A stretch of 64,000 bases of DNA from Candidatus Omnitrophota bacterium (GTDB lineage: Bacteria; Omnitrophota; Gorgyraeia; Gorgyraeales; Gorgyraeaceae): assembly GCA_003485765.1 (NCBI GenBank), contig DNHS01000035.1, forward strand, positions 127,745 through 191,744. Direction: 5' to 3'. Below the pieces are notes generated by a model, which saw only the letters and a list, made by a program, of their open reading frames with translations, had not been told where the DNA came from and did not search any database. The position numbers and the translations under genes are program-made. This document shows positions 23,016 through 47,454 of this stretch, in pieces. Numbering within the stretch: position 1 is the first letter of the stretch; every line of letters begins with the position of its first letter.

Positions 23016-23752
23016 AAATAGAAGAACAATTTAAATATTCGCAATTAGGAGATTCTTATTGGTGGCTTGCCGGTAAATATCTATTAATTACAAAGCTTCT
23101 TAAGAAAGTTTTGGATAAGCAGTACAAAAAGGGTAGAAAAAGTTTAAAAATATTAGATATTGGTTGTGGCCCAGGAAATCTATCTAACAATTTATCAAAC
23201 ATTGGGGAAGTGTTTGGTATTGATGTTTCGCTGCCCACTTTAAAGCTGTGCCAAAAAAAGTACTCAAATTTAATTAATGGGAAAGCTGACGAGTTGCCTA
23301 TTCGCGAAGGTTCTTTTGATATTGTTATTCTTTTAGATGTGCTGGAACATATAGCTGATGATGCTAAAGTTATGAAAGAAACTTTTCGCATCTTGAAGCC
23401 AGGAGGAATTGTTTTAATAACAGCGCCTGCATGTAAAATATTATGGGGCAGCCACGATGAAATATATCAGCACTATAGAAGATACAGCTTGGATGAGATA
23501 AAAAAGGTGGTTAGAAGAGCTGGTTTTACAATAAAAAAACTAATAGCTTTTGAAGCTATTTTTTTTATACCTCTTTTATTATTTAGGAAAATTAAAAATG
23601 TTTTAAATTATTCCAAGAGAGATGATTTTATAAAAATTCCGAATTGGTTAAATTCTATTCTAACAGTTATTGTTTTGCTAGAAGGGCGAATTTCTTATAA
23701 TATTAATAATCCTTTAGGGGTTTCAATAATATGCATAGCAAAAAAAGAATAA
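23012..23752 (+). CDS. class I SAM-dependent methyltransferase
   Basis: Motif I ILDIGCGPGNLS. Confidence 0.75.
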   Translation: MKIEEQFKYSQLGDSYWWLAGKYLLITKLLKKVLDKQYKKGRKSLKILDIGCGPGNLSNNLSNIGEVFGIDVSLPTLKLCQKKYSNLINGKADELPIREGSFDIVILLDVLEHIADDAKVMKETFRILKPGGIVLITAPACKILWGSHDEIYQHYRRYSLDEIKKVVRRAGFTIKKLIAFEAIFFIPLLLFRKIKNVLNYSKRDDFIKIPNWLNSILTVIVLLEGRISYNINNPLGVSIICIAKKE

Positions 23753-24963
23753 TAGTAGCTGTTTTTATATCCGCATTTATATTGAGAATAAGCTGGATGC
23801 TTATTACAAGTTCTCATGTCCACCCACGGATATGGGAATATGAAAATATAGCGATAAATCTTTTAAATGGCCATGGATTTACATACTTTCATTTAAATAC
23901 AGTTTATCGTTCCTTTGTGCAGCCCTTGTATCCATTTTTTTGCACTGTTATATATTTGTTCACAAATCATAGTTATTTAATTTTGCAATTGATCCAAATT
24001 ATCATTTCTTCATTCATATGTGTTATTATCTTTGAAATAGCAGGCATTATTTTTGATAGGCGCATAGCTGTATTTTCAGCAATATTGGCAGTTTTCCATC
24101 CTGGTATGATTGTTTATGCTGTAAAGTTACACCCTTTGGTAATAGATACTTTTCTTATATCATTAGTTGCCTTGACATTTTTACATCTCAGGTCAAATTT
24201 TTCTGTACGGAATCAAATCATTGCCGGCATTATAAGCGGATTGTGCATTCTTACTCGTTCTACTATAGGATTGTTTTTGCTTTTAGCTGTAATTTGGCTT
24301 CTTTATAGGAATGGCTATCCTAAGAAGAAGATTATTTTAGGAGGTTTTATTATTTTATTCGCAAGTTTTCTTATTATTTTACCATGGATGATAAGAAATT
24401 ATATGGTTCATAGACAGGTTGTTTTTATGCAAACTACTACTGGAGAAGTTTTTTGGAGGGGCAATAATACTAATGCATCAGGCTCTGCTTACAAGATTGA
24501 CGGCAGGACAGTTTTAGGATCTTCTTCTCCTGAATTTTTAAAAAAACTTTATAGCTTAGATGAAATGGGGCAAAATAAATTATTCAGAGAAGAAGCATTT
24601 GGTTTCATGAAAGGACATCCTTTTGAAGTGATGTCTTTATTTATAAAAAAGAACTACTATTTTTGGTGGTTTTCTCCGCAATCTGGCATGGAATATCCAA
24701 AGCTTTATCTATTAATTTATAAGGCTTTGTATTCTGTTGTTATTTTATTTGGAATTTTAGGTATTATTTTTGCTTTGAGTTCCAGGATAAGCAATATTAG
24801 AGAAAACACTTTATTAATACTGCTTCTTTTTTTATCTATTTCTTTTGCTCAAAGTCTTTTTTATGTAGAAGGAAGGCACAGATGGGCAATTGAACCAATG
24901 CTCCTAATTTTTACTGCAAATGGAATAGTTAATATAAAAAATATGGTAAAAGGTAAAATTTGA
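23731..24963 (+). CDS. ArnT/PMT-like (GT39/GT83) integral membrane glycosyltransferase
   Basis: Paralogue of 2911-4257 (YENIAINLLNGHGFTY loop), more than 10 TM helices. Confidence 0.55.
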   Translation: MHSKKRIIVAVFISAFILRISWMLITSSHVHPRIWEYENIAINLLNGHGFTYFHLNTVYRSFVQPLYPFFCTVIYLFTNHSYLILQLIQIIISSFICVIIFEIAGIIFDRRIAVFSAILAVFHPGMIVYAVKLHPLVIDTFLISLVALTFLHLRSNFSVRNQIIAGIISGLCILTRSTIGLFLLLAVIWLLYRNGYPKKKIILGGFIILFASFLIILPWMIRNYMVHRQVVFMQTTTGEVFWRGNNTNASGSAYKIDGRTVLGSSSPEFLKKLYSLDEMGQNKLFREEAFGFMKGHPFEVMSLFIKKNYYFWWFSPQSGMEYPKLYLLIYKALYSVVILFGILGIIFALSSRISNIRENTLLILLLFLSISFAQSLFYVEGRHRWAIEPMLLIFTANGIVNIKNMVKGKI

Positions 24964-24965
24964 AT

Positions 24966-25049
24966 ATGTACGGGATATGTGGGAAGATTAGTTCAAATGT
25001 AGCGGTTAACGAGAAACTCATCAGTAAGATGTGCTGGACGCATACATAA
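24966..25049 (+). pseudogene. degenerate duplicate of the 5' end of asnB (28 codons)
   Basis: atgtacgggatatgtgggaagattagttcaaatgta… aligns base-for-base with the asnB start at 29324 (atgtgcgggatatgcgggaagattagtataaatggt…). Peptide MYGICGKISSNVAVNEKLISKMC versus MCGICGKISINGNVTEELIRKMC. Ends in a stop after 28 codons. Confidence 0.6.
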
Positions 25050-25185
25050 GTATATCGCATAGCGTAAAAAAGGAGGCCTTTCATGTCAAAGGGCGGATGG
25101 ATAGTAAAGTTTAATAATGTTGAGGTGGAAAGGTGTTATGCGGTTTCGTAGAGGAGGATTAATATAGGCGCTCCGGCAGTATATT

Positions 25186-26340
25186 ATGAATAAAAACATC
25201 AGACTTTCGATAATTTTTATAGTTTTTGCCATAGTTTCCCTGAATGTCTTTCCCGCGTATCCCTCGGATGATAGTTCCCCGGAGAAAATCACTGATATAT
25301 CAGACCGTAAATATGAACAAGTCCTGATCGATTTGCTGGATAACGCTAAAGAATCGATAGTTATTTCCATGTATGGTATAAGCCTTGGCTTCGGAGAAAA
25401 AAGTCCGGTAATGCTCCTATTAAATGACTTGTTAGAGGCTAGGAAACGGGGAGTCAGTGTTACAATGTATCTTAATACCCGCTTTAGGGACACCGATAAA
25501 TCTGAAGGGTCTTTTATTGAAAGCCCTGTGTTTAAGGAGCTGAAAGACGCAGGGTGTGATATTTACCTTATACCGTCCAGCCGTACGCTTCATGATAAAC
25601 TCATAATAGTTGATAGTAGATATGTGGTAATAGGCAGTACAAACTGGTCTAATTCTGCTTTGCGGAGGAATTTCGAATCCAATACCCTTATTGATTCGCC
25701 TCGCCACGCCGGTGAAAAACTCAAGCGGCTTGAAGATGTGTTGAAGTTTGTAAAGTCAAATACGGAAATATCCGGCATTCCTGATTATTTGGAAGATCTG
25801 CCTGAGGAGATAGCTATCTCTGAAGAGCTCCTGGTAAATAAGAAATACTTTTCCCGCATGGTTACAGGCCAGGATGAACGCGTTTTTGATCTATATCTCT
25901 TACTTTTAGGCTATAGCCAATTAACGAGTGAGAGTGAATTTTTCATAAACATGGAAGATATGGCATTGAGTTTGGGACTGCCTAGCGCATGGAGTTATAC
26001 TGCTTTAAGGAGGCAGGTGATAAGAAGCCTGAAGAGGCTCCGGAACCCGTATGATCTTATAAGCGTAGACTTTCTGCATGGTAAAGACGTCTTCGTAAAG
26101 CTTACAGATATCCCGGGTGATTCTTTTGTTATACCATCAGAGTCTATTATGAAGAGGCAAGGCGCTGATTTAACCTTGCGCCTGAAATTTCTTCTTATGA
26201 TAGAGGCTCTCTTCAAAAGCAGAGGGGAAGATATTTCTTCTATAGCAAAGTCTGATCTAGCTAAGCGTTTTAATGTAAATGAATCCACCATCCAGGAAGC
26301 CTTTAATGACTTAAAAAAAATTGAAAGAAACCGCCCTTGA
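25186..26340 (+). CDS. secreted phospholipase-D-superfamily (single HKD, Nuc-like) protein with C-terminal helical extension
   Basis: Signal-peptide-like N-terminus (MNKNIRLSIIFIVFAIVSLNVFPAYPSDD). One HxKx4D motif (HDKLIIVD…GSTNWS). The C-terminal about 200 aa contain winged-helix-like segments. Confidence 0.65.
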   Translation: MNKNIRLSIIFIVFAIVSLNVFPAYPSDDSSPEKITDISDRKYEQVLIDLLDNAKESIVISMYGISLGFGEKSPVMLLLNDLLEARKRGVSVTMYLNTRFRDTDKSEGSFIESPVFKELKDAGCDIYLIPSSRTLHDKLIIVDSRYVVIGSTNWSNSALRRNFESNTLIDSPRHAGEKLKRLEDVLKFVKSNTEISGIPDYLEDLPEEIAISEELLVNKKYFSRMVTGQDERVFDLYLLLLGYSQLTSESEFFINMEDMALSLGLPSAWSYTALRRQVIRSLKRLRNPYDLISVDFLHGKDVFVKLTDIPGDSFVIPSESIMKRQGADLTLRLKFLLMIEALFKSRGEDISSIAKSDLAKRFNVNESTIQEAFNDLKKIERNRP

Positions 26341-26377
26341 GATGTGTCTATATATAAAGCCTATTGCCTTTTTGCGA

Positions 26378-26454
26378 CATGTCTAATAGACACATTCCGC
26401 CAGTGCCTATTGACTTTTAAGTTAGAAGCGGGTAGATTTATATAGAGTTGGCTA
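26378..26454 (+). repeat. about 75-bp direct repeat R3 copy A, containing operator palindrome and sigma70-like promoter
   Basis: More than 90% identical to 31236-31304. Contains ATGTCTAATAGACACAT palindrome, TTGACT (26410-15), 17-bp spacer, TAGATT (26433-38). Confidence 0.6.
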
Positions 26455-26562
26455 AAGGGTGGGGGCAAATAGCCGCCGCCCTTGCAATATTACCATTCTT
26501 ATGTTATACTCATTATAGTGAGTAATAGTTCAATAAAATGAGTATTGGGGAGGGAAGGAGTT

Positions 26563-27129
26563 ATGCTTTCTAGTTATGTTATCTCTACTAATTCACAAAG
26601 CGCATTAAGCTTTCTTCTCGCGCATCCTGACAAATCACATTACGAAAGAGAAATTGCCAGAGGCGCTAAGATTAGTTATGGCTCAGCTAATAATATATTA
26701 AATCGGTTATACAAAGAAAACCTGGTCAAGAGAAAAATTGAAGGCAGGATGTGTTACTATTCTATTGATATGGCTAATCCATATATCAAAGAATTTAAGA
26801 TTCTAAATAATCTCCTTCTTATTGAATCTCTAATAGAACTTCTCAAGCCATATGCCCGCAAGATAATTCTTTACGGAAGCTGGGCTCAAGGAACCGATAT
26901 CGAAAATAGCGATATAGACTTGTTTATTATTACCTCAGATGAAGATAAAGTCAGATCTATTGTTGACAAATATTCTTATACTAACAAAGCAGCCAATAGA
27001 AAAATACAGGCTATTATCAATACCCCTGCTGATCTCCTGAACACAGATGAGAAAGAGGCTGTTTTTATGGAAGAAGTAAAACAAGGAAAAATCTTATGGG
27101 AGAGAGAAATTAATGAACATAACCTTTAA
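26563..27129 (+). CDS. winged-HTH + minimal nucleotidyltransferase (MNT) protein
   Basis: ATG at 26563 follows a GGAGGGAAGGAG RBS; the track start at 26545 is TTG. GSWAQGTDIENSDIDLFII is the pol-beta NTase GS…DxD motif. The N-terminal about 70 aa are wHTH-like. Confidence 0.7.
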   Translation: MLSSYVISTNSQSALSFLLAHPDKSHYEREIARGAKISYGSANNILNRLYKENLVKRKIEGRMCYYSIDMANPYIKEFKILNNLLLIESLIELLKPYARKIILYGSWAQGTDIENSDIDLFIITSDEDKVRSIVDKYSYTNKAANRKIQAIINTPADLLNTDEKEAVFMEEVKQGKILWEREINEHNL

Positions 27130-27544
27130 AGATTGCATAGCAAGTAAGAAAATATTCCGCTTTCCTCCGGCAAAGCACCTTGTAGATCTCGAAATCAAAG
27201 ATTCTGAGGATGATCTGCAATCAGCCGAGGAAGAATTTTCTAAAGCAGGATATAAATGGGCTACGATTAAAGGCTACTATTCAATGTTCCATGCAGCGCG
27301 AGCTCTCCTGTACTCTCGGGGATACAGAGAAAGAGGCCATTATTGTCTTTACCTGGCAATAAAAGAATTCTTCGTTAAAGAAGAGAAGCTAAATCTTCAA
27401 TTGGCAGAAGATTTTAACAATTCTATGATTCTGCGGGAAGAAGCGGATTACAAAAGAAAATTTTCTCAGAAAGGCGCTTCTGGAATAATTGAAAGCGCAA
27501 AAAAATTCCTTAAGGCGGCAAAAGAACTACTAAATCCCCTTTGA
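27113..27544 (+). CDS. HEPN-domain protein (partner of the upstream MNT)
   Basis: All-helical 143 aa with an R-x(3-6)-H-like segment (RERGHY) and REEADYKRK. Start overlaps the MNT stop by 17 nt. Confidence 0.6.
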   Translation: MNITFKDCIASKKIFRFPPAKHLVDLEIKDSEDDLQSAEEEFSKAGYKWATIKGYYSMFHAARALLYSRGYRERGHYCLYLAIKEFFVKEEKLNLQLAEDFNNSMILREEADYKRKFSQKGASGIIESAKKFLKAAKELLNPL

Positions 27545-27585
27545 GCGCCACAAAAGTTCAGTATTTGAATCACAATGATGTTGAA

Positions 27586-28293
27586 ATGATCAAATTTGGC
27601 ATTAGACAGTCATTTGATAATATAGAACAGATAGAAGAGAGATATTCAAAATTGGATGCGCCTGTAGAGTTGGCTCTGCCTTACTACTGGGATATATATG
27701 AGCCTGTTAGAGGTCGTTTAACGGAAGTAGTTGAAAAGATAAGATCGTACGGGACAAAAGTTTTAAGTGTGCATGCGGTTCAGGCTCCTATTACGGATGA
27801 ACGATTTAAGATATGGGGAAATGAAATAGCTGATTTCGCTAGGACGCTCGGGGCGACGAATATTACTTTGCACCCTAACAATGTTAATAAGGATAAAGCT
27901 GTCCAAGACGAAGCGCTCAAGAATTTGGAATATTTTTCCGGGCTATATAAAAACGATGTGGTCTTTTGTATTGAAACTTTTGAAGGTAAGCGAAGAGTTT
28001 TTACTCCCGATGAAATAGCATCATTTAACTTGCCGATGACATTGGATACATCACATATACGAGAGGACGAAAAGGTCTGGAGCTTGATTAAGGGATATAA
28101 AGAGCGCATCTTCAATGTGCATCTTTCAGCAAGAGAAGGCGCGAGACAACATCTGCCTATTGACGATTTTTGCAAAGAGGTGGTGCGCTATCTGATAGAT
28201 AACAAATGGACCGGGAATGTAATATTGGAGTATCTACCAGAATTTCACGGGCATCTGATAAGCGATCTAGAATTGCTGAAAGCAATGCAGTAG
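27586..28293 (+). CDS. xylose-isomerase-like TIM-barrel protein (AP-endonuclease-2 / sugar-phosphate isomerase fold)
   Basis: Alternating beta-strand/His-Glu pattern (MIKFGI…LSVHAV…ITLHPN…CIETFEG…DTSHI…NVHLSA…EYLPEFHGH), spaced as in endonuclease IV and sugar-phosphate isomerases. The track start is TTG 27541 overlapping the HEPN stop (TTGA); first ATG is 27586. Confidence 0.4.
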   Translation: MIKFGIRQSFDNIEQIEERYSKLDAPVELALPYYWDIYEPVRGRLTEVVEKIRSYGTKVLSVHAVQAPITDERFKIWGNEIADFARTLGATNITLHPNNVNKDKAVQDEALKNLEYFSGLYKNDVVFCIETFEGKRRVFTPDEIASFNLPMTLDTSHIREDEKVWSLIKGYKERIFNVHLSAREGARQHLPIDDFCKEVVRYLIDNKWTGNVILEYLPEFHGHLISDLELLKAMQ

Positions 28294-28489
28294 GTCTTAA
28301 TAGAGGATTTCATGAGAGAGGCCGTAGAGTTTTTGAAGAACTTAGTTTTTGGCAAGGAATATCTTAAGGCGACTATAAAAGAATACTAGCATCGGGGACG
28401 TCTTACTGCGCTGTAACATTTTACCATATAATAAGTTACGAGCCTTATGGTTCTAAAATATAAGGCATTTCTATGTGATGTATTCGAAT

Positions 28490-28574
28490 CGTGACGCGCT
28501 GCGTCACGAATTAAGCTGGACGCACTATAGGAAAAATTACTCATCAAGATATAGCCCAGGTTTAAACCTGGGCT
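28490..28574. repeat. two GC-rich perfect hairpins/palindromes in the Phd-RelE upstream region
   Basis: cgtgacgcGCTgcgtcacg (28490-28508) and the perfect 22-mer AGCCCAGGTTTAAACCTGGGCT (28553-28574). Confidence 0.5.
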
Positions 28575-28595
28575 GCTGCGAGCTGAACTGTTACC

Positions 28596-28624
28596 TTGAC
28601 AGATATCCAAAAATAGGATATACT
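28596..28624 (+). promoter_or_regulatory. sigma70-like promoter of the Phd/RelE pair with internal operator
   Basis: TTGACA(28596-601)-17 bp-TATACT(28619-624). The spacer contains inverted repeat ATATCC-N7-GGATAT. Confidence 0.45.
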
Positions 28625-28666
28625 TTTAATGTAGACACAAAGGTAACTACAAAGGAGGTGAGTGTG

Positions 28667-28957
28667 ATGAGCATTGCTGCTGATTTATTAAAAGCTAATC
28701 ATGTTGGCATCAGGGATATTAAAGAACATCTATCTACACGGCTGCTTAAAGATATTTTGGTAATAACTGATAGGGGCACGCCTGTAAGTGTAAATCTGCC
28801 TTATTCTGATGTATTAGAATTGATAGATATTATTGATGAGGCGGCGGATTTGGAAACTATGGCTACAGTTAGCGAAGGAAGATTGGCAATAAGGGAAGGC
28901 GCAAAAGGTATACTGGTTGCCGATCTTTTTAAAAGAATAAGGACGCAGCGTAAATGA
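28667..28957 (+). CDS. Phd/YefM-family antitoxin
   Basis: ATG 28667 preceded by AAGGAGG; the longer track ORF from 28475 has no RBS and runs through the palindromes. Sequence …GIRDIKEHLSTRLLKDILVITDRGTPVSV… fits Phd/YefM. Stop overlaps the toxin start (ATGA). Confidence 0.6.
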   Translation: MSIAADLLKANHVGIRDIKEHLSTRLLKDILVITDRGTPVSVNLPYSDVLELIDIIDEAADLETMATVSEGRLAIREGAKGILVADLFKRIRTQRK

Positions 28958-29262
28958 AATACCAGGTTAGGTTCCCCGGTCATTCTATTGAGAAAAAATT
29001 TGAGAAATTTCTTTTAAAGATTCATCCGGTAAGCCTGCAAGAAGAAATTATGCAAGACCTGAGTAAGCTTGCCGATAACCCCCGGCCTTATGGTGAAAAG
29101 GCTTTTAAGAAACTCAAGCTGCCTATTCAATTTTATCAGTATGTTGCGCAATACAGAATAAGAATAGGCGACTATAGAATGCTTTATGATGTAGATGATG
29201 AGAAAAAGATTGTATGGATTTTAGCATTGAGAAGGCGTTCGGAAAAAACATACAGAACATAA
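28954..29262 (+). CDS. RelE/ParE-family toxin
   Basis: C-terminus YRIRIGDYRMLYDVDDEKKIVWILALRRR is the RelE/ParE/YoeB signature. Confidence 0.7.
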   Translation: MKYQVRFPGHSIEKKFEKFLLKIHPVSLQEEIMQDLSKLADNPRPYGEKAFKKLKLPIQFYQYVAQYRIRIGDYRMLYDVDDEKKIVWILALRRRSEKTYRT

Positions 29263-29323
29263 CCCACTAAACACATAGGATAGAGGCGATTATTGACACA
29301 TTTGTGTAAATAAAGGGAGACGT

Positions 29324-31204
29324 ATGTGCGGGATATGCGGGAAGATTAGTATAAATGGTAATGTGACAGAAGAACTCATCAGGAAGATGTGTGGGGTGCT
29401 TACGCATAGGGGGCCGAATGACGAAGGGGTTTATGTAAAAGGAGGTATGGGGCTGGGGCATAGGAGGCTCGCTATTATTGATTTATCGCAGGCTGGGCAT
29501 CAGCCGATGAGTAATGAAGATGGTTCTATCTGGATAGTTCTGAATGGAGAGATTTATAATTTTATTGAGTTAAGAGAGGCGCTTGAAAAAAAAGGCCACA
29601 GGTTTAAATCTCATGCAGATACTGAAGTAGTATTACATTTATATGAGGATAAAGGCGTAGAATGCCTTAAGGATTTAAGAGGGCCTTTCGCGTTCGCGAT
29701 ATGGGATAGCAGGAAAGAACTTCTTTTTATTGCCAGAGATAGGATTGGCAAAAAACCATTATATTACCATTATAGAAATCAGACATTGATCTTTGCTTCC
29801 GAGATTAAGGCTATCCTGCAGGATCCTGATGTATCGAGAGAGGTCAACAGACCTGCAATAACAGATTATCTAAGTTATGGATATACGCCTACGCCAGAAA
29901 CTATGTTTAAGAATATTGTGAAGCTCCCGCCTGCTCATTTTATGGTCTATGAAAAAGGCAATATAAGATTAGAAAAATACTGGGAACTTGATTTTTCAAA
30001 AAAGATAAAAATGTCCGAGAAAGATTATTGCCATAGAACCATGGAACTTCTTGAAGAATGTACTAAGATACGCCTAATAAGCGATGTACCGCTAGGAGCT
30101 TTCTTAAGTGGGGGCATAGATTCGAGCGCTGTAGTGTATATGATGAGCAAACTAAGTTCAAAGCCTGTAAAGACATTTTCCATAGGTTTCGATGATAAAG
30201 AGTATAGCGAATTAAAATACGCTAAAGTTATTGCAGATAGATTTAAAACAGAACATCATGAGTATATTGTTAAGCCAGACGCTATAGAACTTTTACCAAA
30301 ACTCGTATGGCATTACAATGAACCTTACGCTGACTCTTCAGCTCTGCCCAGTTATTATGTGGCGAAGATGACCAGACAAGAAGTGACTGTCGCTTTAAAC
30401 GGAGATGGAGGGGATGAGGATTTTGGAGGATATGAAAGGTTTATGGCAGCAAGATTCGCTGAATCAATCAGTAAATCGCCTGTGCCTTTCAAGGATAAAA
30501 TTATAAAGCTTATTGTAAGTAGTATTCCAGAATCCATGGGATTTAAGGACTCTAGGTTCAGGCTTAGGAGGTTTTTAATCGAGTTATCAAAGCCATGCAG
30601 GGAAAGGCATTACAATTGGATATCGATATTCAGCGAGCATGAAAAGGAAAACATGTTTACAGCAGGATTTGCCGGAGAACTTGCCGGAAAGAGTTCATTT
30701 AATTATTTAGACAGAGCGTTTAATGAATGCGGCTCAAAAGATATTGTAGATTTAGTGATGTCAGCGGATATAAAGACTAATCTATTGGATGACCTGCTTG
30801 TGAAAATGGATATAGCAACAATGGCGAATTCGCTGGAAGGCAGGTCGCCGTTTTTAGATCATAAGATGATGGAGTTCTGTGCCGCTATGCCGAGCAATAT
30901 GAAAATAAAAGGCACAAAATTAAAATATATATTAAAGAAAGCGTTATCCAAGGCATTGCCTAAGGAAATACTTTCCCGAGGCAAGATGGGATTCGGCGTG
31001 CCACTGGACGCCTGGTTTCGTAAAGAATTAAAAGACTATTCTTATGGCATTTTAATGAGCGATAACTGCGTAAATAGAGGTTATTTTAAAAAAGACGTTA
31101 TAAAGAAAATCCTTGATGAACACACCTCCGGCAAAGCCAATAACGGCGCCAGGATCTGGAGCCTATTATTCCTGGAATTATGGCATAAGGAATTTATAGA
31201 TTAA
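29324..31204 (+). CDS. asnB: asparagine synthase (glutamine-hydrolysing) family amidotransferase
   Basis: MCGICG N-terminal Cys nucleophile, RGPNDEG, SGGIDSS PP-loop, 626 aa. Confidence 0.9.
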   Translation: MCGICGKISINGNVTEELIRKMCGVLTHRGPNDEGVYVKGGMGLGHRRLAIIDLSQAGHQPMSNEDGSIWIVLNGEIYNFIELREALEKKGHRFKSHADTEVVLHLYEDKGVECLKDLRGPFAFAIWDSRKELLFIARDRIGKKPLYYHYRNQTLIFASEIKAILQDPDVSREVNRPAITDYLSYGYTPTPETMFKNIVKLPPAHFMVYEKGNIRLEKYWELDFSKKIKMSEKDYCHRTMELLEECTKIRLISDVPLGAFLSGGIDSSAVVYMMSKLSSKPVKTFSIGFDDKEYSELKYAKVIADRFKTEHHEYIVKPDAIELLPKLVWHYNEPYADSSALPSYYVAKMTRQEVTVALNGDGGDEDFGGYERFMAARFAESISKSPVPFKDKIIKLIVSSIPESMGFKDSRFRLRRFLIELSKPCRERHYNWISIFSEHEKENMFTAGFAGELAGKSSFNYLDRAFNECGSKDIVDLVMSADIKTNLLDDLLVKMDIATMANSLEGRSPFLDHKMMEFCAAMPSNMKIKGTKLKYILKKALSKALPKEILSRGKMGFGVPLDAWFRKELKDYSYGILMSDNCVNRGYFKKDVIKKILDEHTSGKANNGARIWSLLFLELWHKEFID

Positions 31205-31235
31205 TACCCTTCCCTTTGATAGCCCACTTTCATGG

Positions 31236-31304
31236 CATGTCTAATGGACACATTCTGCCAGCGCCTATTGACTTTTAAGTTAGAAGCGGGTAGATTTATA
31301 TATA
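31236..31304 (+). repeat. direct repeat R3 copy B with promoter (TTGACT 31268-73 / TAGATT 31291-96)
   Basis: Near-identical to 26378-26454. Confidence 0.6.
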
Positions 31305-31328
31305 GTAATTAAAAATCTGGAGGGATAA

Positions 31329-31899
31329 ATGACAAAAGAGGCAGCTGTTACTAAAATTGCTATTTTTCGGAAGAAAGAGATCAGGAAAACCATTCATAAG
31401 AATGAATGGTGGTTTGTTATTGAAGACGTTATCTCAGCTTTGATTAATTCCAGTGATCCTAAGCAGTATATACAGAGAATGAAACAAAGGGATCCAGAGT
31501 TGGCCAAAGGGTGGGTACAAATTGTACATACCCTTGAAATTCGCACAGAAGGTGGAAGGCAGAAGATGAACTGTGCAAATACAGAAGGTATTTTTCGCAT
31601 TATCCAGTCTGTTCCTGACCCCGTCCGCGTATAAAAAGTTTAAAGGATTAAAGCGGCAAAATCTGCGGGATCATATGAATGACTTGGAGCTAATCTTCTC
31701 AATGCTTGGAGAGGCATCCACTAAAGAAATCACCATAAATAAAAATGCTCAGGGATTTATTGAGACTAAACAAGCGGCCCAGGAGGGCGGCGCTGTCGCA
31801 GGCAATGCTAGAAAAGAATTGGAAAGAAAGAGCGGTAAAAAAGTATTAACGCGTGAAAATTATCTAAAGGCAGCTCAAAGCAAGAAACTCTTGAATTAA
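31329..31899 (+). pseudogene. Bro-N domain / DinD-like gene split by a +1 frameshift
   Basis: ORF 31329-31634 carries a Bro-N-like N-domain (…NEWWFVIEDV…TEGIFRIIQSVP). The +1 frame ORF continuing to 31899 carries a DinD-like C-terminus (…QGFIETKQAAQEGGAVAGNARKELERKSGKKVLTRENYL). The frames switch near the C-run at about 31617. Confidence 0.5.
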
Positions 31900-31917
31900 T
31901 GGAGTAATATTATTTTA

Positions 31918-31966
31918 GGAAAGAAAAATTTTTGAAAGAAAACGCTTTTGAGATGTGTCTTATATA
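31918..31966 (+). repeat. repeat R2 copy 1 (ends in GAGATGTGTCTTATATA box)
   Basis: Matches 34083-34140 apart from a 9-nt indel. Confidence 0.5.
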
Positions 31967-32022
31967 GTAGCGAATCAAGGACTCTAATCCGCTGATTTTG
32001 TAAAAAATCCTTACTTTCGTCC

Positions 32023-32051
32023 TTGACGATTTCCTTACTTTATGGTATATT
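32023..32051 (+). promoter_or_regulatory. sigma70-like promoter of the AbrB-type antitoxin cassette
   Basis: TTGACG-17 bp-TATATT, then RBS GGGAGGTGAG and ATG 32074. Confidence 0.45.
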
Positions 32052-32073
32052 TGATAACGGGAGGTGAGAAAAT

Positions 32074-32331
32074 ATGACAGTTACCATGACCGCAAAGAAT
32101 CAAATAACCATACCTAAAAAGATCACAGAAGCCTTGGGTTTAGAAAAGGGGTCTATGTTCAAGGTAGAGGTTTCTAAGAATGGGATAGAGTTTATTCCTC
32201 TGGAGACAAAAGAGAGGGAGTTTACCCATGAGGAATATACAAAATTAGAAACCCTGGCAGTACAAGAAAAGGGAAAAGAGAAGCGCGTGACAAAAAAGCT
32301 TATCGATAATTTAAAAAAAGGGAAAATTTAA
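32074..32331 (+). CDS. AbrB/MazE/SpoVT-type (swapped-hairpin) antitoxin
   Basis: N-terminus TMTAKNQITIPKKITEALGLEKGS is the SpoVT/AbrB looped-hinge motif. Confidence 0.7.
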   Translation: MTVTMTAKNQITIPKKITEALGLEKGSMFKVEVSKNGIEFIPLETKEREFTHEEYTKLETLAVQEKGKEKRVTKKLIDNLKKGKI

Positions 32332-32334
32332 TCA

Positions 32335-32472
32335 ATGCCTTTACGAAGGCCTTATTATGAAGCCGGGATAGAAGGAAGTATTCGTGTTGTGATAAGACAA
32401 GAGGGGCAAATGTGTATTGCAGTATTAGCAGGGAATCACGACCAAATAAGACAATTTCTGGCCACTGGGTAG
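32335..32472 (+). pseudogene. truncated RelE/ParE-like toxin remnant (45 aa)
   Basis: Begins 4 nt after the antitoxin stop. Peptide …SIRVVIRQEGQMCIAVLAGNHDQI resembles only the C-terminal beta-sheet of RelE/ParE; the N-terminal half is absent. Confidence 0.3.
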
Positions 32473-32558
32473 AGAACCTTCCCCTATATAAACCAAACAT
32501 AGAGGCGCGTTATGGAAAGGACGAAGTCGCCAAGGCAAGAGAGCTTAGCTTTATGATA

Positions 32559-32620
32559 GTCTCCTCCATGCGTTCGGATAATCCTTTAAGGAATATTGGA
32601 TATGTGGTTGGGATTTTAAG
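32559..32620 (+). repeat. repeat R1 copy 1
   Basis: About 90% identical to 34022-34082 (gtctcctccatgcg…ggataatcctttaag…gggattttaag). Confidence 0.55.
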
Positions 32621-32718
32621 ATATGCCCGATAGACATATTTCGTCAGTACCTATTGACAAAATAAAAATATAGATTATACTCTATATAGAGATAGGTTAT
32701 AATCTATATGCAAGCATA

Positions 32719-33441
32719 GTGGGGATTTCTATGGATTTGAAGCTAAGAGAGGCACAAAAACTTGTTCTGAAGATATTTTCGCAAGAGGCAGAGGATTTCG
32801 CGCTTGCCGGCGGCACAGCACTTGAATTATATTACCTGCGTCACAGATTTTCTTCGGATCTGGATTTTTTTTCAAGAAAATACCCCGTTTCAGAAATAGA
32901 TACTTTGGTAGAGGCCTTTGAAAAACATCTGGATCAGAAAATTCATCTGGAATCAGAATTTGTTTCCGTCAATAAGGCGTGCGTCCGGTTTTATGCTATA
33001 CCGGTCAAGGGTTCGGATAGGCCATTAAAGATTGATTTTGTTGAAGATGTTGTGTGTACTCGCCCGGTAATACGGAAAATTGACGGTGTCCGCGTGTATA
33101 GCGCGGAGGATTTATACCTGCATAAAATAGCCGCTATTTCTGGCACTCAAGTTATAACAGATGAGGTCGGCAGGCAAGTCAGCGAAGGCCGCAAAGAGGC
33201 GCGGGATGTATTTGACGTGTACATGCTTTCAAAAAAAATACAGCCATTGCACATATTCCTGCGCAGTCTTTCGCCCCGGTTCCAAAAGGGGATAGTCCAC
33301 TGGTATCGGACATTTTCCAGGCAGGAACTCAAGCTCGCGCTAATGGAGCTGGATATTTACGATACTGAATTCAATGCCAGGGAATTGGTTATTTATCTGG
33401 AAAACGAGGTCAAGCAATTAGCCAAGGAGGCAATAGGATAA
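32719..33441 (+). CDS. AbiEii/AbiGii-family nucleotidyltransferase (type IV TA toxin-like, DUF1814)
   Basis: …FALAGGTALELYYLRHRFSSDLDFFS… is the AbiEii GGTAL…R.SxDLDF NTase motif. An alternative ATG is at 32731. Confidence 0.7.
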   Translation: MGISMDLKLREAQKLVLKIFSQEAEDFALAGGTALELYYLRHRFSSDLDFFSRKYPVSEIDTLVEAFEKHLDQKIHLESEFVSVNKACVRFYAIPVKGSDRPLKIDFVEDVVCTRPVIRKIDGVRVYSAEDLYLHKIAAISGTQVITDEVGRQVSEGRKEARDVFDVYMLSKKIQPLHIFLRSLSPRFQKGIVHWYRTFSRQELKLALMELDIYDTEFNARELVIYLENEVKQLAKEAIG

Positions 33442-33950
33442 TGATTATTTCAAAATATTTTTGGGACATAAGTGAAACTGCCCTGAAAGAAACAGCCAGG
33501 ATACTTAAAAATCCAAAACATCCTCAATTTCCGGTTAAAATGGTAATTTTTATGTCGCGCTGTGATAAGCCAAAGGAGCTATTTTCCTTGATTGCCAAGG
33601 ATGAGTTTATAGACGCATGGCCAAAGATCAGGGCTCAATGGATAAAACGCGCGCGGCAGTCAGATTTCAGGGATTGGTGGGAAACAATCTATGAACATCT
33701 CGTAGATGCGCATGGACGAGCGCGCAGAAAACCCACAAGCGCCACGCCGGTTTTTTTCCGAAAGTTTGGAGCGCTTATTAAAGAAGCGAGGATTCGGAAA
33801 GGGTTGAGCCAGAAACAATTGGCGCATCGCATAGGTATGAAACAGCCGGATGTTTCCAGGATAGAAGAAGGCAGGAAAAATATCACGCTATACACCGTCA
33901 TGCGTTTCTGCAATGTTTTAGGCATTAAGAAAATTACAGTAGGCCAGTAA
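33441..33950 (+). CDS. protein with unknown N-domain and C-terminal XRE-family HTH
   Basis: C-terminus LIKEARIRKGLSQKQLAHRIGMKQPDVSRIEEGRKNITLYTV is Cro/C1-type HTH. The ATG overlaps the AbiEii stop by 1 nt (TAATG). Confidence 0.6.
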   Translation: MIISKYFWDISETALKETARILKNPKHPQFPVKMVIFMSRCDKPKELFSLIAKDEFIDAWPKIRAQWIKRARQSDFRDWWETIYEHLVDAHGRARRKPTSATPVFFRKFGALIKEARIRKGLSQKQLAHRIGMKQPDVSRIEEGRKNITLYTVMRFCNVLGIKKITVGQ

Positions 33951-34021
33951 AACGTCAACTATTTTTTCGACCCTGTAATTATAATTGTCGCATAACAAAT
34001 GTAGCCAAAGCAGTCAAAAAA

Positions 34022-34140
34022 GTCTCCTCCATGCGGCCGGATAATCCTTTAAGAAACATTGGATATTTAGTGGGGATTTTAAGGAAAGAAAAATTTTAAA
34101 AATTTTTGAAAGAAAACGCTTTTGAGATGTGTCTTATATA
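34022..34140 (+). repeat. repeats R1 copy 2 + R2 copy 2 (ends in GAGATGTGTCTTATATA box)
   Basis: Direct duplicates of 32559-32620 and 31918-31966. Confidence 0.55.
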
Positions 34141-34168
34141 TGAAAGAGGGCTTGGGCATGGGGTGATA

Positions 34169-34197
34169 TTGACACATTTGTGTAAATGTGGTATATT
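34169..34197 (+). promoter_or_regulatory. sigma70-like promoter of RHH-MazF cassette with ACACAnnTGTGT operator
   Basis: TTGACA-17 bp-TATATT. The 20-mer ATTGACACATTTGTGTAAAT is also present at 29292-29311 immediately upstream of asnB. Confidence 0.45.
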
Positions 34198-34217
34198 TTG
34201 TTCAGGAGGTGAGTTAT

Positions 34218-34469
34218 ATGGTAAAAAAGAATATGGGAAGGGAAAGATTGAGCATTGATGTATTGCCGGAAGAACACAGGCAGATTAAGGCATATGCCGC
34301 GCTGTATGGTAAGACAATGAGAGAATATGTATTGGAATGCGTACAGAAAAAACTGCGAGAGGAAACTGAACAAAAGGAATTAGCTAATATGAGCGCATAT
34401 CCTGACAAGGATTCTATATTAAACAGCGTATGGGAAAATAAAAAGGATGCGGCATATGATAAAATGTAA
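34218..34469 (+). CDS. ribbon-helix-helix (CopG/ParD-like) antitoxin
   Basis: ATG 34218 after CAGGAGGTGAG. ERLSIDVLPEEHRQIKAYAALYGKTMREYVLECV is beta-strand then two helices. Confidence 0.6.
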   Translation: MVKKNMGRERLSIDVLPEEHRQIKAYAALYGKTMREYVLECVQKKLREETEQKELANMSAYPDKDSILNSVWENKKDAAYDKM

Positions 34470-34806
34470 ATACGGAGACATTGTATTAGTAAACTTTGGT
34501 TTTTCTGAAGGGATTGGGTTTGAGAAAAGGCCTGCGTTGGTTATAAGCAGTGAGGCATATCATGCGGAAAGGCAGGAGGTAGTTATCCTGGCTATTACCA
34601 GCAATGTAAATAGAATATTCTTGGGCGACACAAAGATTTCTCAATGGAAAGAAGCTGGATTGCTTTATCCTTCACTTGTTACAGCGATTATAAGGACAGT
34701 AAAATCAGATATGATTTTTAGGAAAATAGGGGAGATCGGGCCGGATGATTTAAAGAGGGTAGAGAGCAGTATAAAGAAAATTTTTGGAATAACTGGAGAA
34801 AAGTAA
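34447..34806 (+). CDS. MazF/PemK-family toxin (mRNA interferase)
   Basis: YGDIVLVNFGFSEGIGFEKRPALVISSEAYH is the PemK/MazF signature. Confidence 0.75.
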   Translation: MRHMIKCKYGDIVLVNFGFSEGIGFEKRPALVISSEAYHAERQEVVILAITSNVNRIFLGDTKISQWKEAGLLYPSLVTAIIRTVKSDMIFRKIGEIGPDDLKRVESSIKKIFGITGEK

Positions 34807-34820
34807 AGCTAGGAGGCAAA

Positions 34821-35558
34821 ATGGCGATGAGAAGTTATGGCTGGGTGCCGGATAGGCCGGATCAGAGGGATTATTTATATAAGGCGATAAGGCCTGTGGT
34901 GAGATTGCCTGAGAAAGTGGATTTGAGGGAATTTTGTTCTATTGTTGAGAATCAGGAGGCGCTTGGGAGCTGTACGGCGAATGCGCTAGCAGGAAATTTG
35001 GAATATTTGGACCATAAAATAGATGATGAATATGAGGATGTGTCGAGACTTTTTATTTATTACAATGAAAGAGTTTTGGAAGATACAGTTGATTATGATT
35101 CAGGAGCATCTCTAAGAGATGGCATTAAGACATTGAGGAAACAAGGCGCGTGCTGGGAAAAGACGTGGCCGTATTTAATAGAGAAATTTACCCGAAAGCC
35201 GCCTCTAAAATGCTACAAAGAAGCTAAAAAACACCAAATTGAATCCTACCACCGCATAGGCGCCCTATCTGAAATGCTTACCTGCCTCGCTGAAGGATAT
35301 CCGTTCGTCTTTGGTTTTACTGTTTATGAAAGTTTCCAGTCGCAGAAAGTGGCCAAAACAGGTGTGGCTAATATGCCCAGGAAGAAGGAAAAAGTCCTTG
35401 GCGGACATGCTGTCCTGGCAGTAGGCTATAACCAGAAGCAAAAGAGATTTATAGTGCGAAATTCCTGGGGAACTAAATGGGGCAAAGACGGATATTTCAC
35501 CATGCCGTACGAATACCTCGAAACCCTTTCAGCAGACTTCTGGACAATAAGAAAATAA
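34821..35558 (+). CDS. papain-like C1A cysteine peptidase, no signal peptide and no prodomain
   Basis: Full catalytic set: Gln (ENQ), Cys (GSCTANA), His (GGHAVLAVGY), Asn-Ser-Trp (NSWGTKWGKDGYF). AGGAGG RBS 5 nt upstream. Starts 15 nt after the MazF stop. Confidence 0.8.
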   Translation: MAMRSYGWVPDRPDQRDYLYKAIRPVVRLPEKVDLREFCSIVENQEALGSCTANALAGNLEYLDHKIDDEYEDVSRLFIYYNERVLEDTVDYDSGASLRDGIKTLRKQGACWEKTWPYLIEKFTRKPPLKCYKEAKKHQIESYHRIGALSEMLTCLAEGYPFVFGFTVYESFQSQKVAKTGVANMPRKKEKVLGGHAVLAVGYNQKQKRFIVRNSWGTKWGKDGYFTMPYEYLETLSADFWTIRK

Positions 35559-35575
35559 ATAGTTATAATAAAGCC

Positions 35576-36745
35576 ATGAAAATATTAAGAATTATAGCAA
35601 GACTTAATATAGGCGGGCCGGCGAGAAATGCGGTCTTGTTAACAGAAGGATTCCCGGGAACTGCGCTTATTTGTGGGGAGGTGGATAAGTCTGAGGGCGA
35701 TATGATGTATTTGGCAGGCGAGAAAGGGATAAAGCCTATTATTATAAAAGAGTTAGGAAGAGAATTATCCTGGAAAGATGATTGGGCGGCGTTTTGGAAG
35801 ATATATAAGATTATTCGCGAGGTAAAGCCGGATATCATTCATACGCATACGGCGAAGGCAGGGACGCTAGGGAGGTTTGCAGGGATATTATATGGTAAAG
35901 CTATTTTAATCCATACCTTTCACGGCCATGTGTTTAGCGGGTATTTTGGGAAGGTTAAGACAATATTTTTTATATGGGTGGAGAAATTTTTAGCGTTGTT
36001 TACTGACACGATAATTACAGTAAGCGAGGCGTTGAAAAAAGAATTGGTAGAAAAATATAGAATAGCGCCAGAGAAAAAATTCAGCGTAATAGAATTAGGT
36101 TTTGAACTGGATGAGCTTTTGAAATTGCCGCCAAGAGAAAACAGCGGAACTGTAAATGTTGGAATTGTGGGAAGGTTAGTGCCTGTAAAAAATCATAAGA
36201 TGATGCTTAGAGTGGCTAAAAGAGTAGGCGATATACAGGGACAGTCCCCTAAAAAGGGGACAGTCCCTGTAGAAATAGTCCCTGTGCGCTATATGATTAT
36301 TGGCGATGGGGAGATGAGGGGAGAACTGGAAAGATACGTGGAAGAATTGGGCATAAAAGATAAAGTAGAGTTCAAGGGATGGGTAAAGGACTTAAAGGCT
36401 ATTTATGAAGAACTTGACATTGTGGCATTGACTTCATTGAATGAAGGAACGCCCGTATCTCTCATAGAAGCAATGGCTGGCGGGAGACCTGTGATAGCTA
36501 CAAATGTAGGCGGCGTAAAGGATATTGTGAAAGATGGCGCGAGCGGATATCTTGTAGAATTAGGAAATGTAGAAGAATTTATTAAAAAACTCCTGGAATT
36601 AATTAAAGATCCTGAGAAAAGAAGAAAATTTGGCGAAAACGGCAGGAATATCGTGAAAGATCGATTCTCAAAAGAAAGATTGATTAAAGATACCGAGAAG
36701 TTGTATAATAATACCCTGCAAGAAAATCAATTTCTTCGGTCTTAA
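35576..36745 (+). CDS. family 4 glycosyltransferase (carries an in-frame palindromic insertion)
   Basis: MKILRIIARLNIGGPARN start and EGTPVSLIEAMAGGRPVIATNVGGVKDIV motif. ATG 35576; the track start at 35477 overlaps the peptidase. Confidence 0.75.
   Translation: MKILRIIARLNIGGPARNAVLLTEGFPGTALICGEVDKSEGDMMYLAGEKGIKPIIIKELGRELSWKDDWAAFWKIYKIIREVKPDIIHTHTAKAGTLGRFAGILYGKAILIHTFHGHVFSGYFGKVKTIFFIWVEKFLALFTDTIITVSEALKKELVEKYRIAPEKKFSVIELGFELDELLKLPPRENSGTVNVGIVGRLVPVKNHKMMLRVAKRVGDIQGQSPKKGTVPVEIVPVRYMIIGDGEMRGELERYVEELGIKDKVEFKGWVKDLKAIYEELDIVALTSLNEGTPVSLIEAMAGGRPVIATNVGGVKDIVKDGASGYLVELGNVEEFIKKLLELIKDPEKRRKFGENGRNIVKDRFSKERLIKDTEKLYNNTLQENQFLRS
36236..36286. repeat. GC-rich hairpin-repeat element inserted in-frame within the GT4 gene
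   Basis: cagGGACAGTCCCctaaaaagGGGACAGTCCCtgtagaaatAGTCCCtgtg: three GGGACAGTCCC-type hairpin units. Translated as …GQSPKKGTVPVEIVPV…. Confidence 0.5.
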
Positions 36746-36867
36746 GACTGGAGTTTGTTTGAAATTGATACTGAGCCCACTATTGTTTCAGTGGCGGGCG
36801 AATGTATAAAGATAATTGAAAGAATTTAGCCTCCAGATGTGTCTAGTATGGTAGAAAGGAGGCTGAT

Positions 36868-37278
36868 ATGACTATGAACAAGAAAGAAAAAGGAGAAATA
36901 GCGGGATTAAGAGGGGAACTGCGAAGCTCTGTGGGAGAATTAAGAGGAGAATTGCAGAGTTCTGTGGGAGAATTAAGAGGGGAACTGCGAAGCTCTGTGG
37001 GAGAATTAAGAGGAGAGTTGCGAAGCTCTGTGGAAGAACTAAGAATACACATGGGTGTCTTGGTAGAGGGTTTGCGTTCAGAAGTTAGGGTGGTAGCTGA
37101 ACAATATGGAAGCGTTGTAAAAAAGCTGGAAGAACATGACAGGAGATTTGATAAAATTGATCTAAGATTTGACAGAATCGACTTAGAGTTTATCGGTATG
37201 AAGACAGGTTTGTTTGATACTAGTCATAGAGTAGATGATCACGAAACAAGAATCAGAAAATTAGAATTAGCTAAATAA
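36868..37278 (+). CDS. small coiled-coil protein with four tandem 11-aa repeats (GELRSSVGELR)
   Basis: ORF preceded by GAAAGGAGG. Repetitive heptad-like N-half and a conserved-looking C-half (…RRFDKIDLRFDRIDLEF…). Confidence 0.4.
   Translation: MTMNKKEKGEIAGLRGELRSSVGELRGELQSSVGELRGELRSSVGELRGELRSSVEELRIHMGVLVEGLRSEVRVVAEQYGSVVKKLEEHDRRFDKIDLRFDRIDLEFIGMKTGLFDTSHRVDDHETRIRKLELAK
36914..37045 (+). repeat. 4 x 33-bp near-perfect tandem repeats inside the coding sequence
   Basis: Unit ggaactgcgaagctctgtgggagaattaagagg, repeated head-to-tail. Confidence 0.7.
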
Positions 37279-40031: not shown

Positions 40032-40038
40032 TTTTAAT

Positions 40039-42555: not shown

Positions 42556-42628
42556 TATTTAGGCCTTAAACAACTTTACATTTCAACAATGTTGATTTGT
42601 AAAGTTGTTTGGAAACATAGGAGTTTAC

Positions 42629-43195
42629 ATGTTTACTTATTTTGAAAAGCTGAACCGTCTTTTTATGGAAATGGAAGCCAGCGATAAAAACAGAAAGAGA
42701 GTCGATATTTCCTCAGCTCTTAAAAGTAGCGTGGAGCTGATAAAGAAAACTGCTGGTAAAGGTAATAAGATTATGTTTATTGGAAACGGCGGAAGCGCCA
42801 GTATATCAAGCCACATGGCAATAGATTTCTGGAAAAATAGCGGGATAAAGGCAGTGAGTTTTAATGACAGCGCTCAGTTGACTTGTCTAGGTAATGACTT
42901 TGGGTATGAGCATGTGTTTGAAAAACCAATAGAGTTTTTCGCTGAAACAGGAGATGTGCTTATAGCAATATCCAGTTCCGGCAAATCAAAAAATATATTA
43001 AAAGGGGTCAAGGCAGCAAGGCTCAAAAAATGCAAGGTCATAACAATGTCCGGATTTTCCAAAAACAATCCTTTAAGAAAAATGGGGTATTTGAATTTTT
43101 ATGTCCCGTCTGATTCTTATGGTTTTGTAGAGATTGCTCACGGCGCAATCTGCCACCTGTTCGCGGATTACACCTATAAAAAACCCAATGGATAA
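42629..43195 (+). CDS. gmhA: phosphoheptose isomerase (SIS domain)
   Basis: IMFIGNGGSASISSHMAIDF…SSSGKS. ATG 42629 after AGGAG. Confidence 0.8.
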   Translation: MFTYFEKLNRLFMEMEASDKNRKRVDISSALKSSVELIKKTAGKGNKIMFIGNGGSASISSHMAIDFWKNSGIKAVSFNDSAQLTCLGNDFGYEHVFEKPIEFFAETGDVLIAISSSGKSKNILKGVKAARLKKCKVITMSGFSKNNPLRKMGYLNFYVPSDSYGFVEIAHGAICHLFADYTYKKPNG

Positions 43196-44255: not shown

Positions 44256-44267
44256 TAATAAATTTAT

Positions 44268-45570: not shown

Positions 45571-45587
45571 AAAAAGGCATTCAAGGC

Positions 45588-47404: not shown

Positions 47405-47454
47405 TTTTATGGCATACTTAAGTATGAATAAAGTATTACTAAAAGGAGGGTTGT

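Follow-up and report, generated by a model that had tools for sequence, protein, structure and literature searches.

How did the first codons of an asnB gene come to lie directly behind a glycosyltransferase gene, with a complete asnB standing some 4 kb downstream? The question is raised by a polysaccharide locus of an Omnitrophota bacterium, of which a 64-kb stretch of DNA was analysed. This whole stretch is called the window, all positions refer to it unless a compared contig is named, and L012, L016, L029 and the like are labels of the contigs or loci compared with it. The glycosyltransferase gene is referred to as PMT_2, and asnB encodes a glutamine-hydrolysing amidotransferase. An open reading frame (ORF) of 84 bp lies behind PMT_2, and the original prediction took it for a degenerate duplicate of the asnB start, left by insertion of a 4.3-kb block. 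We favour, with modest confidence, a displacement scar, in which recombination was anchored in conserved asnB and the left joint was illegitimate. The ORF, called the stump here, is in any case part of a real but fairly ordinary gene-shuffling scar in a hypervariable sugar-coat locus.

The asnB stump

The PMT_2 stop codon (24961-24963) and the ATG of the stump at 24966 are separated by a gap of 2 nucleotides (nt), and the TAA of the stump is at 25047-25049. The encoded peptide is MYGICGKISSNVAVNEKLISKMCWTHT, followed by the stop, and the N-terminus of the intact asnB product is MCGICGKISINGNVTEELIRKMCGVLTHRG. The claimed similarity between the two gene starts holds. A repeat search finds a direct repeat of 81 nt with 75% identity between 24965-25045 and 29323-29403 (spacing 4358), and tblastn with the asnB protein matches amino acids (aa) 3-23 to 24972-25034 at 71% identity, with no further asnB piece in the window. 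An extension of the stump beyond 25046 to about 25101, hinted at by a MAFFT alignment, was rejected. The stretch 25047-25185 scores at the shuffle mean, and the homology therefore stops at about 25038-25046.

The stump is not an intact amidotransferase, with its stop after 27 codons and only aa 3-23 aligning. It is a dead, non-functional 5' remnant of an asnB-type gene, because the catalytic Cys2 is Tyr. The resident asnB matches PF13537 (GATase_7, 5e-49) and PF00733 (Asn_synthase, 1.6e-97) across its full length, and its nucleophile Cys follows the initial Met.

The MCGICG N-terminus is very widely conserved, and metagenome contigs can be chimeric at repeats, which would suit a chance similarity or a misassembly. 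Either explanation is effectively refuted. The Smith-Waterman score of the stump against the asnB 5' end is 67, about 20 standard deviations above 500 shuffles (17.0 +/- 2.5, maximum 27), and the stump lies at the exact asnB-start offset of three relatives. In L107, an independent assembly of a distinct strain (99.4% identical) from another sample of the same site, the PMT_2-stump-PLD junction is identical base for base (235/235 nt), and misassembly is therefore excluded.

The junction in related genomes

PMT_2 homologues form a graded series of identity, and the junction between the PMT_2 stop and the asnB start ('..GGTAAAnTTTGAATATG..') recurs in L012, L016 and L029. L029 has a 66-codon 3' stump of PMT_2 (4758-4958), the 2-nt junction, an intact asnB, a C1 peptidase gene and a GT4 gene, and no modules. 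It is an empty site on both flanks of asnB, of the kind that the original prediction had proposed to look for in relatives, and its junction is uninterrupted. In the window the stump keeps this original context, and the intact asnB starts 4358 nt further on, past foreign cargo. The C1 peptidase gene directly follows asnB in L035, as does the GT4 gene in L034. An asnB 3' stump ahead of the C1 peptidase gene of the window was looked for and is not there.

L012 has a PMT_2 that is 91% identical to that of the window in aa (93% in nt). After the junction it carries an asnB pseudogene, in which a 5' piece with a start codon that is now ATA is fused to the last ~56 codons; the contigs then break. 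This stump is 83% identical to the L035 gene and 68% to the window asnB. L016, whose PMT_2 is a 76% relative (80% nt), repeats the architecture of the window with different cargo: behind the junction come 190 nt of asnB stump, two genes on the reverse strand (aspartyl-protease-like and DUF5678) and then a complete asnB.

Stumps are widespread. A census of all retrieved loci finds asnB stumps in L012-15, L016/17/32, L019/22, L062 and L108; counting PLD as well, stumps are seen on the independent contigs L012, L016, L019, L062 and L108. L108, found via the PLD protein, starts with an asnB 3' stump, followed by AAA_14/DUF4143, a 5'+3' stump of PLD and another AAA_14/DUF4143. It continues with a 5'+3' stump of asnB, HTH/Fic, a PLD fragment, a full PLD gene, DUF1016 and AbiEii. 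The 19 nt upstream of the asnB 5'+3' stump in L108 match those upstream of the working window asnB. L028 carries the 3' end of PLD (92%), an intact Bro-N/PDC-S13 gene, asnB, a PLD-like remnant, AAA_14/DUF4143 and the MazE module (94.5%).

The locus had been described as otherwise syntenic, a description that fails. Gene order differs everywhere, and no asnB follows PMT_2 in relatives at <=67% PMT_2 identity. The relatives at 61-67% identity (L019, L023, L026) have no downstream asnB and are hence silent on the junction. L007, the sole species-representative genome match for PMT_2 (42% identity), was set aside as not syntenic, the 622-aa neighbour being a GT1+DUF218 protein and not asnB. In L019/L022 an asnB 3' stump lies directly before PMT_2 (L019 9782-9999).

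Origin of the stump

The stump resembles other alleles of asnB somewhat more than the resident one. Over the first 72 nt its identity is 76% to the resident asnB and 81-82% to the L035, L028, L029 and L016 alleles, and the longest exact run shared with the resident gene is 12 nt. The window and L012 stumps both carry the signature GCGGTT.ACGA, as in the L035/L027 allele class. With this signature and the closer foreign alleles, the stump is therefore probably not a target duplication of the resident gene, and the idea of a degenerate copy of the resident 5' end is not supported. To judge from its sequence, the stump would most simply be the remnant of another allele, the one that first followed PMT_2. 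The orthologous stumps of the window and L012 are about 72% alike, and their neighbour genes are 93% alike; such a likeness is expected for neutral decay in both lineages, with few sites compared.

The stump of L016 appears young. Over 125 nt it shares ~90% identity with the copy downstream, and it has a 36-nt (12-codon) loop segment that the downstream copy lacks and other alleles (P0129) have. The stump and the intact copy of L016 therefore belong to different allele classes.

These allele differences bear on a local origin of the stump. The main rival to displacement, less likely but serious, is that unequal crossing-over between the promoter-like repeats D5 or D3 gave two asnB copies in tandem, and that the first copy was then eroded and overwritten by modules down to ~80 nt. 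The series stump, PLD, D5a runs parallel to asnB, D5b, with the two D5 copies 94% identical and bracketing a unit of 4858 bp from MNT to asnB, and a region so rich in repeats could drive unequal exchange. The asnB pseudogenes of L012 and L108 keep 5' and 3' ends around an internal deletion, as an eroded full copy would, and the resident asnB is no outlier in divergence. A tandem copy is harder to reconcile with the young L016 stump, which differs from the copy downstream by a loop present in foreign alleles, and with the signature of the other allele class in the window and L012 stumps. The two asnB genes of L016, 5 kb apart, are only ~73% identical to each other's class. None of the compared relatives has two intact tandem copies at the junction, and D5 lies beside asnB in no other compared genome.

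Independent assemblies break at both D5 copies, and contig L004 covers exactly D5a to D5b. A circular or alternative form of this unit was considered and dropped, as the breaks are uninformative: any assembler breaks at repeats.

Modules on both sides of asnB

The 4.3 kb between the stump and asnB is not one block. It is at least three separate modules with separate histories: PLD; wHTH-MNT/HEPN/TIM barrel; and antitoxin/ParE-RelE. The PLD module and its upstream stretch are found alone in other contexts in L108 and L028, and the D5 copies bracket MNT to asnB, leaving PLD outside. The genes named in the original prediction are largely borne out by Pfam (PLD, MNT/HEPN/TIM barrel, RelE), with the exception of 'Phd', a label that is positional only and has no Pfam match.

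The PLD gene encodes a protein with a signal-peptide-like N-terminus, a PLDc_2 domain and a weak C-terminal helix-turn-helix (HTH), and PADLOC matches it to DrmC-like PLD models. In L107 the 3' end of this gene carries a 1977-bp insertion sequence (L107 4676-6652, inserted at window 26270-26273). The element encodes a DUF4277+DDE_Tnp_1 transposase, is bounded by perfect 18-nt terminal inverted repeats (CCCAAGTTCCGCAGTTAA) and shows a TTAA target duplication.

The reading frames of the wHTH-MNT nucleotidyltransferase, HEPN and TIM-barrel genes overlap and are described as translationally linked. The nucleotidyltransferase and HEPN genes form an adjacent pair, as in the PADLOC candidate module PDC-M05. 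The TIM-barrel gene is outside the PDC-M05 model, and we know of no description of this three-gene arrangement. The 72 nt that follow the TIM-barrel gene (28312-28383) recur directly after asnB in L027 at 90% identity, and their first 30 nt recur in L108. They represent either another short boundary element common to these loci or the beginning of a gene that has been lost.

The putative antitoxin ORF overlaps the ParE/RelE toxin ORF by 4 nt and has no Pfam match to Phd/YefM or any other family. No terminator-like site was found on the + strand between the promoter-like site at 28596 and asnB, and asnB is probably now read through from this predicted promoter. The working asnB has a different upstream region, as had been proposed, which includes TTGACACATTTGTGTAAAT, a fragment of a promoter of the toxin-antitoxin (TA) type, whose exact second copy lies at 34169-34187 before ParD (chance expectation 0.06).

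The accretion of modules goes on 3' of asnB for a further 3.6 kb (31205-34820). With modules on both sides, asnB is therefore surrounded by the variable zone and does not mark its edge. An insertion relative to an ancestral PMT_2-asnB junction is supported; a single bounded 4.3-kb island is not. Among the 3' modules, the Bro-N ORF (101 aa) and a 108-aa ORF match positions 5-98 and 184-273 of the 286 in the PDC-S13 profile. L028 has an intact 279-aa version, and the window gene is probably split by a frameshift.

Several modules are bordered by short repeats: D2/D3 at 26312, 31923, 34097 and 36807, D5, and D6 at 32558 and 34021. They raise the question of integron-like capture, in which a recombinase encoded elsewhere would insert cassettes at D2/D3, D5 and D6 and the asnB stump would be a by-product. 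The repeats do lie at module boundaries, D3 is 100% identical between two window modules and L035, all genes have the same orientation, and TA modules are typical integron cargo. We nevertheless hold this to be highly improbable. No IntI-like gene is present among the Pfam-scanned ORFs (23.7-48.6 kb), and an Rfam scan of the module region found no family or structured element. The repeats lie upstream of genes and have sigma-70-like -35/-10 hexamers, and so look like promoters or operators and not like attC hairpins, the attC fold not having been examined in detail. They also differ between modules, and D5 occurs only in this genome.

Horizontal exchange

The modules share 92-97% nt identity across genomes in which backbone identity is 73-89%. 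The window and L035 are an example: their backbone genes are 73-89% identical in nt and the MazE module 95%. This module lies upstream of asnB in L035 and downstream of it in the window. For the AbiEii and PLD pieces, L108 and L028 match the window at 88-94%.

The asnB gene itself is mosaic. Its identity to seven relatives in 120-nt windows ranges from 47 to 94%, with segments of 47-75% alternating with segments of 88-94%. It is 72% identical to L027 in nt 1-120 and 94% in nt 1081-1200, and 92% identical to L035 in nt 841-1020 and 70% in nt 1141-1260. The mosaic is seen against L027, L028, L035, L029 and L016, and there is a hypervariable, indel-rich loop at codons 36-60. From the module identities and the segment profile of asnB, it follows that modules and parts of asnB have been exchanged horizontally.

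A proposed displacement of asnB

The displacement that we favour has to account for several observations: a stump still in its original context, a relative with an empty site, cargo that varies between genomes at shared junctions, and modules that are much more alike than the backbone. In this model asnB would once have followed PMT_2 with a 2-nt gap. Incoming DNA would have carried foreign modules and a complete asnB, and the homologous anchor would have been the conserved asnB or sequence beyond it. The left joint would have been illegitimate, falling at about nt 75-85 of the asnB copy behind PMT_2. The working asnB would thereby have ended up 4.36 kb downstream, behind independently acquired modules, and would have lost its tight coupling to PMT_2. 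Further modules would then have accreted 3' of asnB. The process would have been repeated in related Omnitrophota, with asnB, short promoter repeats and other conserved gene ends as anchors, leaving stumps behind.

Much of this architecture, with a displaced native end on one side and an intact end on the other, is also what site-specific integration would give, if an att site lay in the first 85 bp of asnB, a new 5' end were supplied, and the recombinase were lost or acted in trans. The same gene end has been struck in several genomes. Displacement is favoured because stump lengths and cargo differ, and because there is no recombinase and no identical core. No integrase or transposase is found among the Pfam-scanned ORFs, and neither these nor a tRNA occur in the block or in 25-48 kb, with a tRNA scan of the module region empty. 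The stumps are ~80, ~190 and ~30 nt long or have 5'+3' forms, giving no common crossover point, and there is no identical core, the longest exact match being 12 nt. The cargo consists of unrelated small modules without conserved element ends. Site-specific integration thus appears very unlikely.

Several points weigh against the displacement model. The window stump is decayed and nearly equidistant from all alleles (76-82%). The layout of asnB 5' end, intervening genes and D5 occurs twice in parallel, which fits local duplication equally well. The resident asnB is about as diverged from relatives (74-84% nt) as the backbone and is not demonstrably foreign, and no natural competence or other DNA-uptake route is known for the organism. 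No donor sequence was recovered, and a CGCATA motif repeated at 25040-25045 and 25056-25061 is only suggestive of microhomology at the putative illegitimate joint. The stump could also be the truncated end of an incoming low-GC glycan block and not the remains of a resident gene.

The recombination pathway is inferred, and either flank may have been the incoming one, because the compositionally odd part is the left 25 kb. The first ~25 kb have a GC content of 0.32-0.35, against 0.38-0.41 between 25 and 48 kb. This rise falls at the stump and parts the left glycan block from all that lies to the right, asnB and backbone included. GC therefore singles out no island at 25050-29323, where the original prediction had proposed to look for one.

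Relation to known systems

Sequential displacement has been proposed for type VI secretion system (T6SS) effector-immunity arrays of Vibrio cholerae and for the C-terminal displacement of Rhs/CDI toxins, with homology-facilitated illegitimate recombination (HFIR) as the proposed pathway (PMC5361080). There, as is proposed here, a conserved segment is the anchor, the incoming cargo brings its own copy, the displaced copy persists as a stump or orphan, and repetition leads to mosaic arrays without an integrase. The present locus differs in that the anchor is asnB, a housekeeping-type glycan-modification gene and not a toxin gene, and in that a 5' stump is left where those systems leave a 3' one. 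TA or candidate defence modules make up the cargo, with no effector-immunity logic, and nothing suggests selection for the stump or orphan.

HFIR is known from Acinetobacter, S. pneumoniae and P. stutzeri, and also from E. coli conjugation (PMC3240628). Its one-sided homology and illegitimate joint would explain why the left junction lacks shared sequence and the right side has a conserved gene. Experiments have documented single events, whereas the scars seen here are natural and recurrent, and HFIR is at most a likely route to them.

The locus also resembles defence islands and hotspots, where variable TA and defence modules lie between conserved backbone genes and the content differs from genome to genome. 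Defence-type cargo here includes the PDC-M05-like MNT/HEPN pair, the PDC-S13-like gene, AbiEii and the DrmC-like PLD. The hotspot is, however, inside a polysaccharide cluster and on both sides of a single conserved gene, and it lacks the hallmarks of integrase, att sites or tRNA. With integrative elements whose insertion duplicates a target-gene end (att sites in tRNA, tmRNA or protein genes), the locus shares the displaced native end and the intact gene at the other border. Such elements differ from it in the recombinase, the identical core and the fixed stump length, none of which is seen here.

A recent preprint on Omnitrophota lists RelE and MntA TA genes among laterally transferred cargo and describes a hypervariable polysaccharide cassette (bioRxiv 10.64898/2026.05.20.726742). 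It deals with the same phylum and the same habitat type; the passages considered here concern chromosome-episome sharing and describe no asnB stumps or junction scars, and 'Asparagine synthase' is absent from the main text. In general terms the phenomenon has already been noted for the phylum.

The locus belongs to known kinds, namely recombination scars, defence/TA accretion hotspots and hypervariable polysaccharide loci, and it is no new kind of system. What it adds is a stump that fixes one recombination junction to within ~10 nt in the genome of an uncultured phylum, and a single conserved amidotransferase gene in a hypervariable glycan cluster, flanked on both sides by changing TA and candidate defence modules. 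Between lineages, these modules are exchanged far more quickly than the backbone accumulates differences, and gene stumps stay behind, as in the Rhs/T6SS displacement models. Such loci are useful for the study of defence-gene spread where no classical mobile element is visible. For annotation, the 84-bp ORF, both halves of the Bro-N gene and comparable fragments are best labelled as pseudogene remnants.

A more far-reaching idea, which we consider improbable, is that the asnB and PLD gene ends and D3, D5 and D6 are substrates of an unrecognised cassette-shuffling system in Omnitrophota, either integrase-independent or acting in trans. Such a system would build TA/defence arrays in polysaccharide loci, and the recurring 5', 3' and 5'+3' stumps would be traces of its normal operation, not of random recombination.

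Features of the locus

A 174-kb contig from a groundwater metagenome of Rifle (Colorado) contains a stretch identical to the window, and several other assemblies of the same population match it too. A 'Candidatus Omnitrophica bacterium' metagenome-assembled genome (MAG) encodes a protein with 100% identity to the PLD protein, and the closest named homologues of PMT_2 and asnB are also from Omnitrophota. Looking up the exact PMT_2 protein sequence gave no match, probably because a different start had been called for the gene. PMT_2 homologues in Omnitrophota MAGs carry the family names GT39/ArnT, and asnB homologues of 70-87% identity are common in the phylum. Most ORFs of the window encode polysaccharide biosynthesis enzymes. 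The + strand carries all substantial ORFs of the 64 kb, apart from one DUF4254 ORF on the - strand (48046-48624). The features between PMT_2 and the resumption of the backbone are listed in Table 1.

Table 1. Coordinates of features from PMT_2 to the GT4 gene, with the evidence for each
Feature	Position	Strand	Evidence and remarks
PMT_2 / GT39-like (ArnT-family) glycosyltransferase	23731..24963	+	Pfam PF13231, E 6.8e-10; closes low-GC glycan block
asnB 5' stump, 27 codons + stop, Cys2 to Tyr	24966..25049	+	Repeat, alignment, tblastn
PLD-family module	25077..26356	+	Gene 25186-26340 and own upstream region; Pfam PLDc_2
D5a, promoter-like 71-nt repeat (TTGACT-17-TAGATT)	26378..26448	+	94% identical to D5b; promoter scan
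wHTH-MNT nucleotidyltransferase	26545-27129	+	Pfam PF18765/PF01909; PADLOC PDC-M05A 9e-25
HEPN	27113-27544	+	Pfam PF05168; PADLOC PDC-M05B 2.7e-4 (weak)
Xylose-isomerase-like TIM barrel (AP_endonuc_2)	27541-28293	+	Pfam
Sigma-70-like promoter match, strong (11/12)	28596..28624	+	Promoter scan; precedes antitoxin-toxin pair
Putative antitoxin	28667-28957	+	Position; no Pfam match even at E<=0.1
ParE/RelE-family toxin	28954-29262	+	Pfam PF05016, 3.7e-10
19-nt TA-type promoter/operator fragment TTGACACATTTGTGTAAAT	29293..29311	+	Fused to asnB ribosome-binding site
Intact asnB-type glutamine-hydrolysing amidotransferase, 626 aa	29324..31204	+	MCGICG N-terminus
D5b, second copy	31236..31306	+	Repeat search
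Bro-N / PDC-S13-like gene, split into two overlapping ORFs	31329..31899	+	PADLOC
D3 repeat 31924-31966, MazE/AbrB-like antitoxin 32074-32331, small ORFs 32335-32633	31917..32633	+	Pfam
AbiEii nucleotidyltransferase toxin and HTH protein	32719..33950	+	Pfam, PADLOC; 93% nt identical copy in L108
3'-end stump of 73-aa ORF (repeat D6) joined to second D3 copy	34006..34148	+	Repeats
ParD antitoxin and PemK/MazF toxin	34188..34806	+	Pfam
C1 peptidase (papain-like) and GT4 glycosyltransferase, backbone resumes	34821..36745	+	Directly after asnB in L029, L035

An inverted repeat of ~50 nt with ~90% identity (15715-15765 on the + strand and 36760-36810 on the - strand) has its arms 21 kb apart. It brackets the stretch from a GT1 gene to the GT4 end, and thus encloses the entire module zone; by a rough estimate it is well below chance expectation for the window.

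Beyond the GT4 gene, a 136-aa ORF (36868-37278) contains four to five tandem 33-nt repeats at 36906-37070. It has a weak apolipoprotein-like helical-repeat match, and is also present in L035, beside an epimerase gene.

A second variable segment of the locus is the 8 kb at 40018-48046, which encode a PfkB/cytidylyltransferase fusion, SIS, radical SAM-SPASM, a split transketolase, GT2 and GT1. L035 lacks this segment but is collinear elsewhere: its WbpL-like gene is followed at once by the sequence that corresponds to window position 48046.

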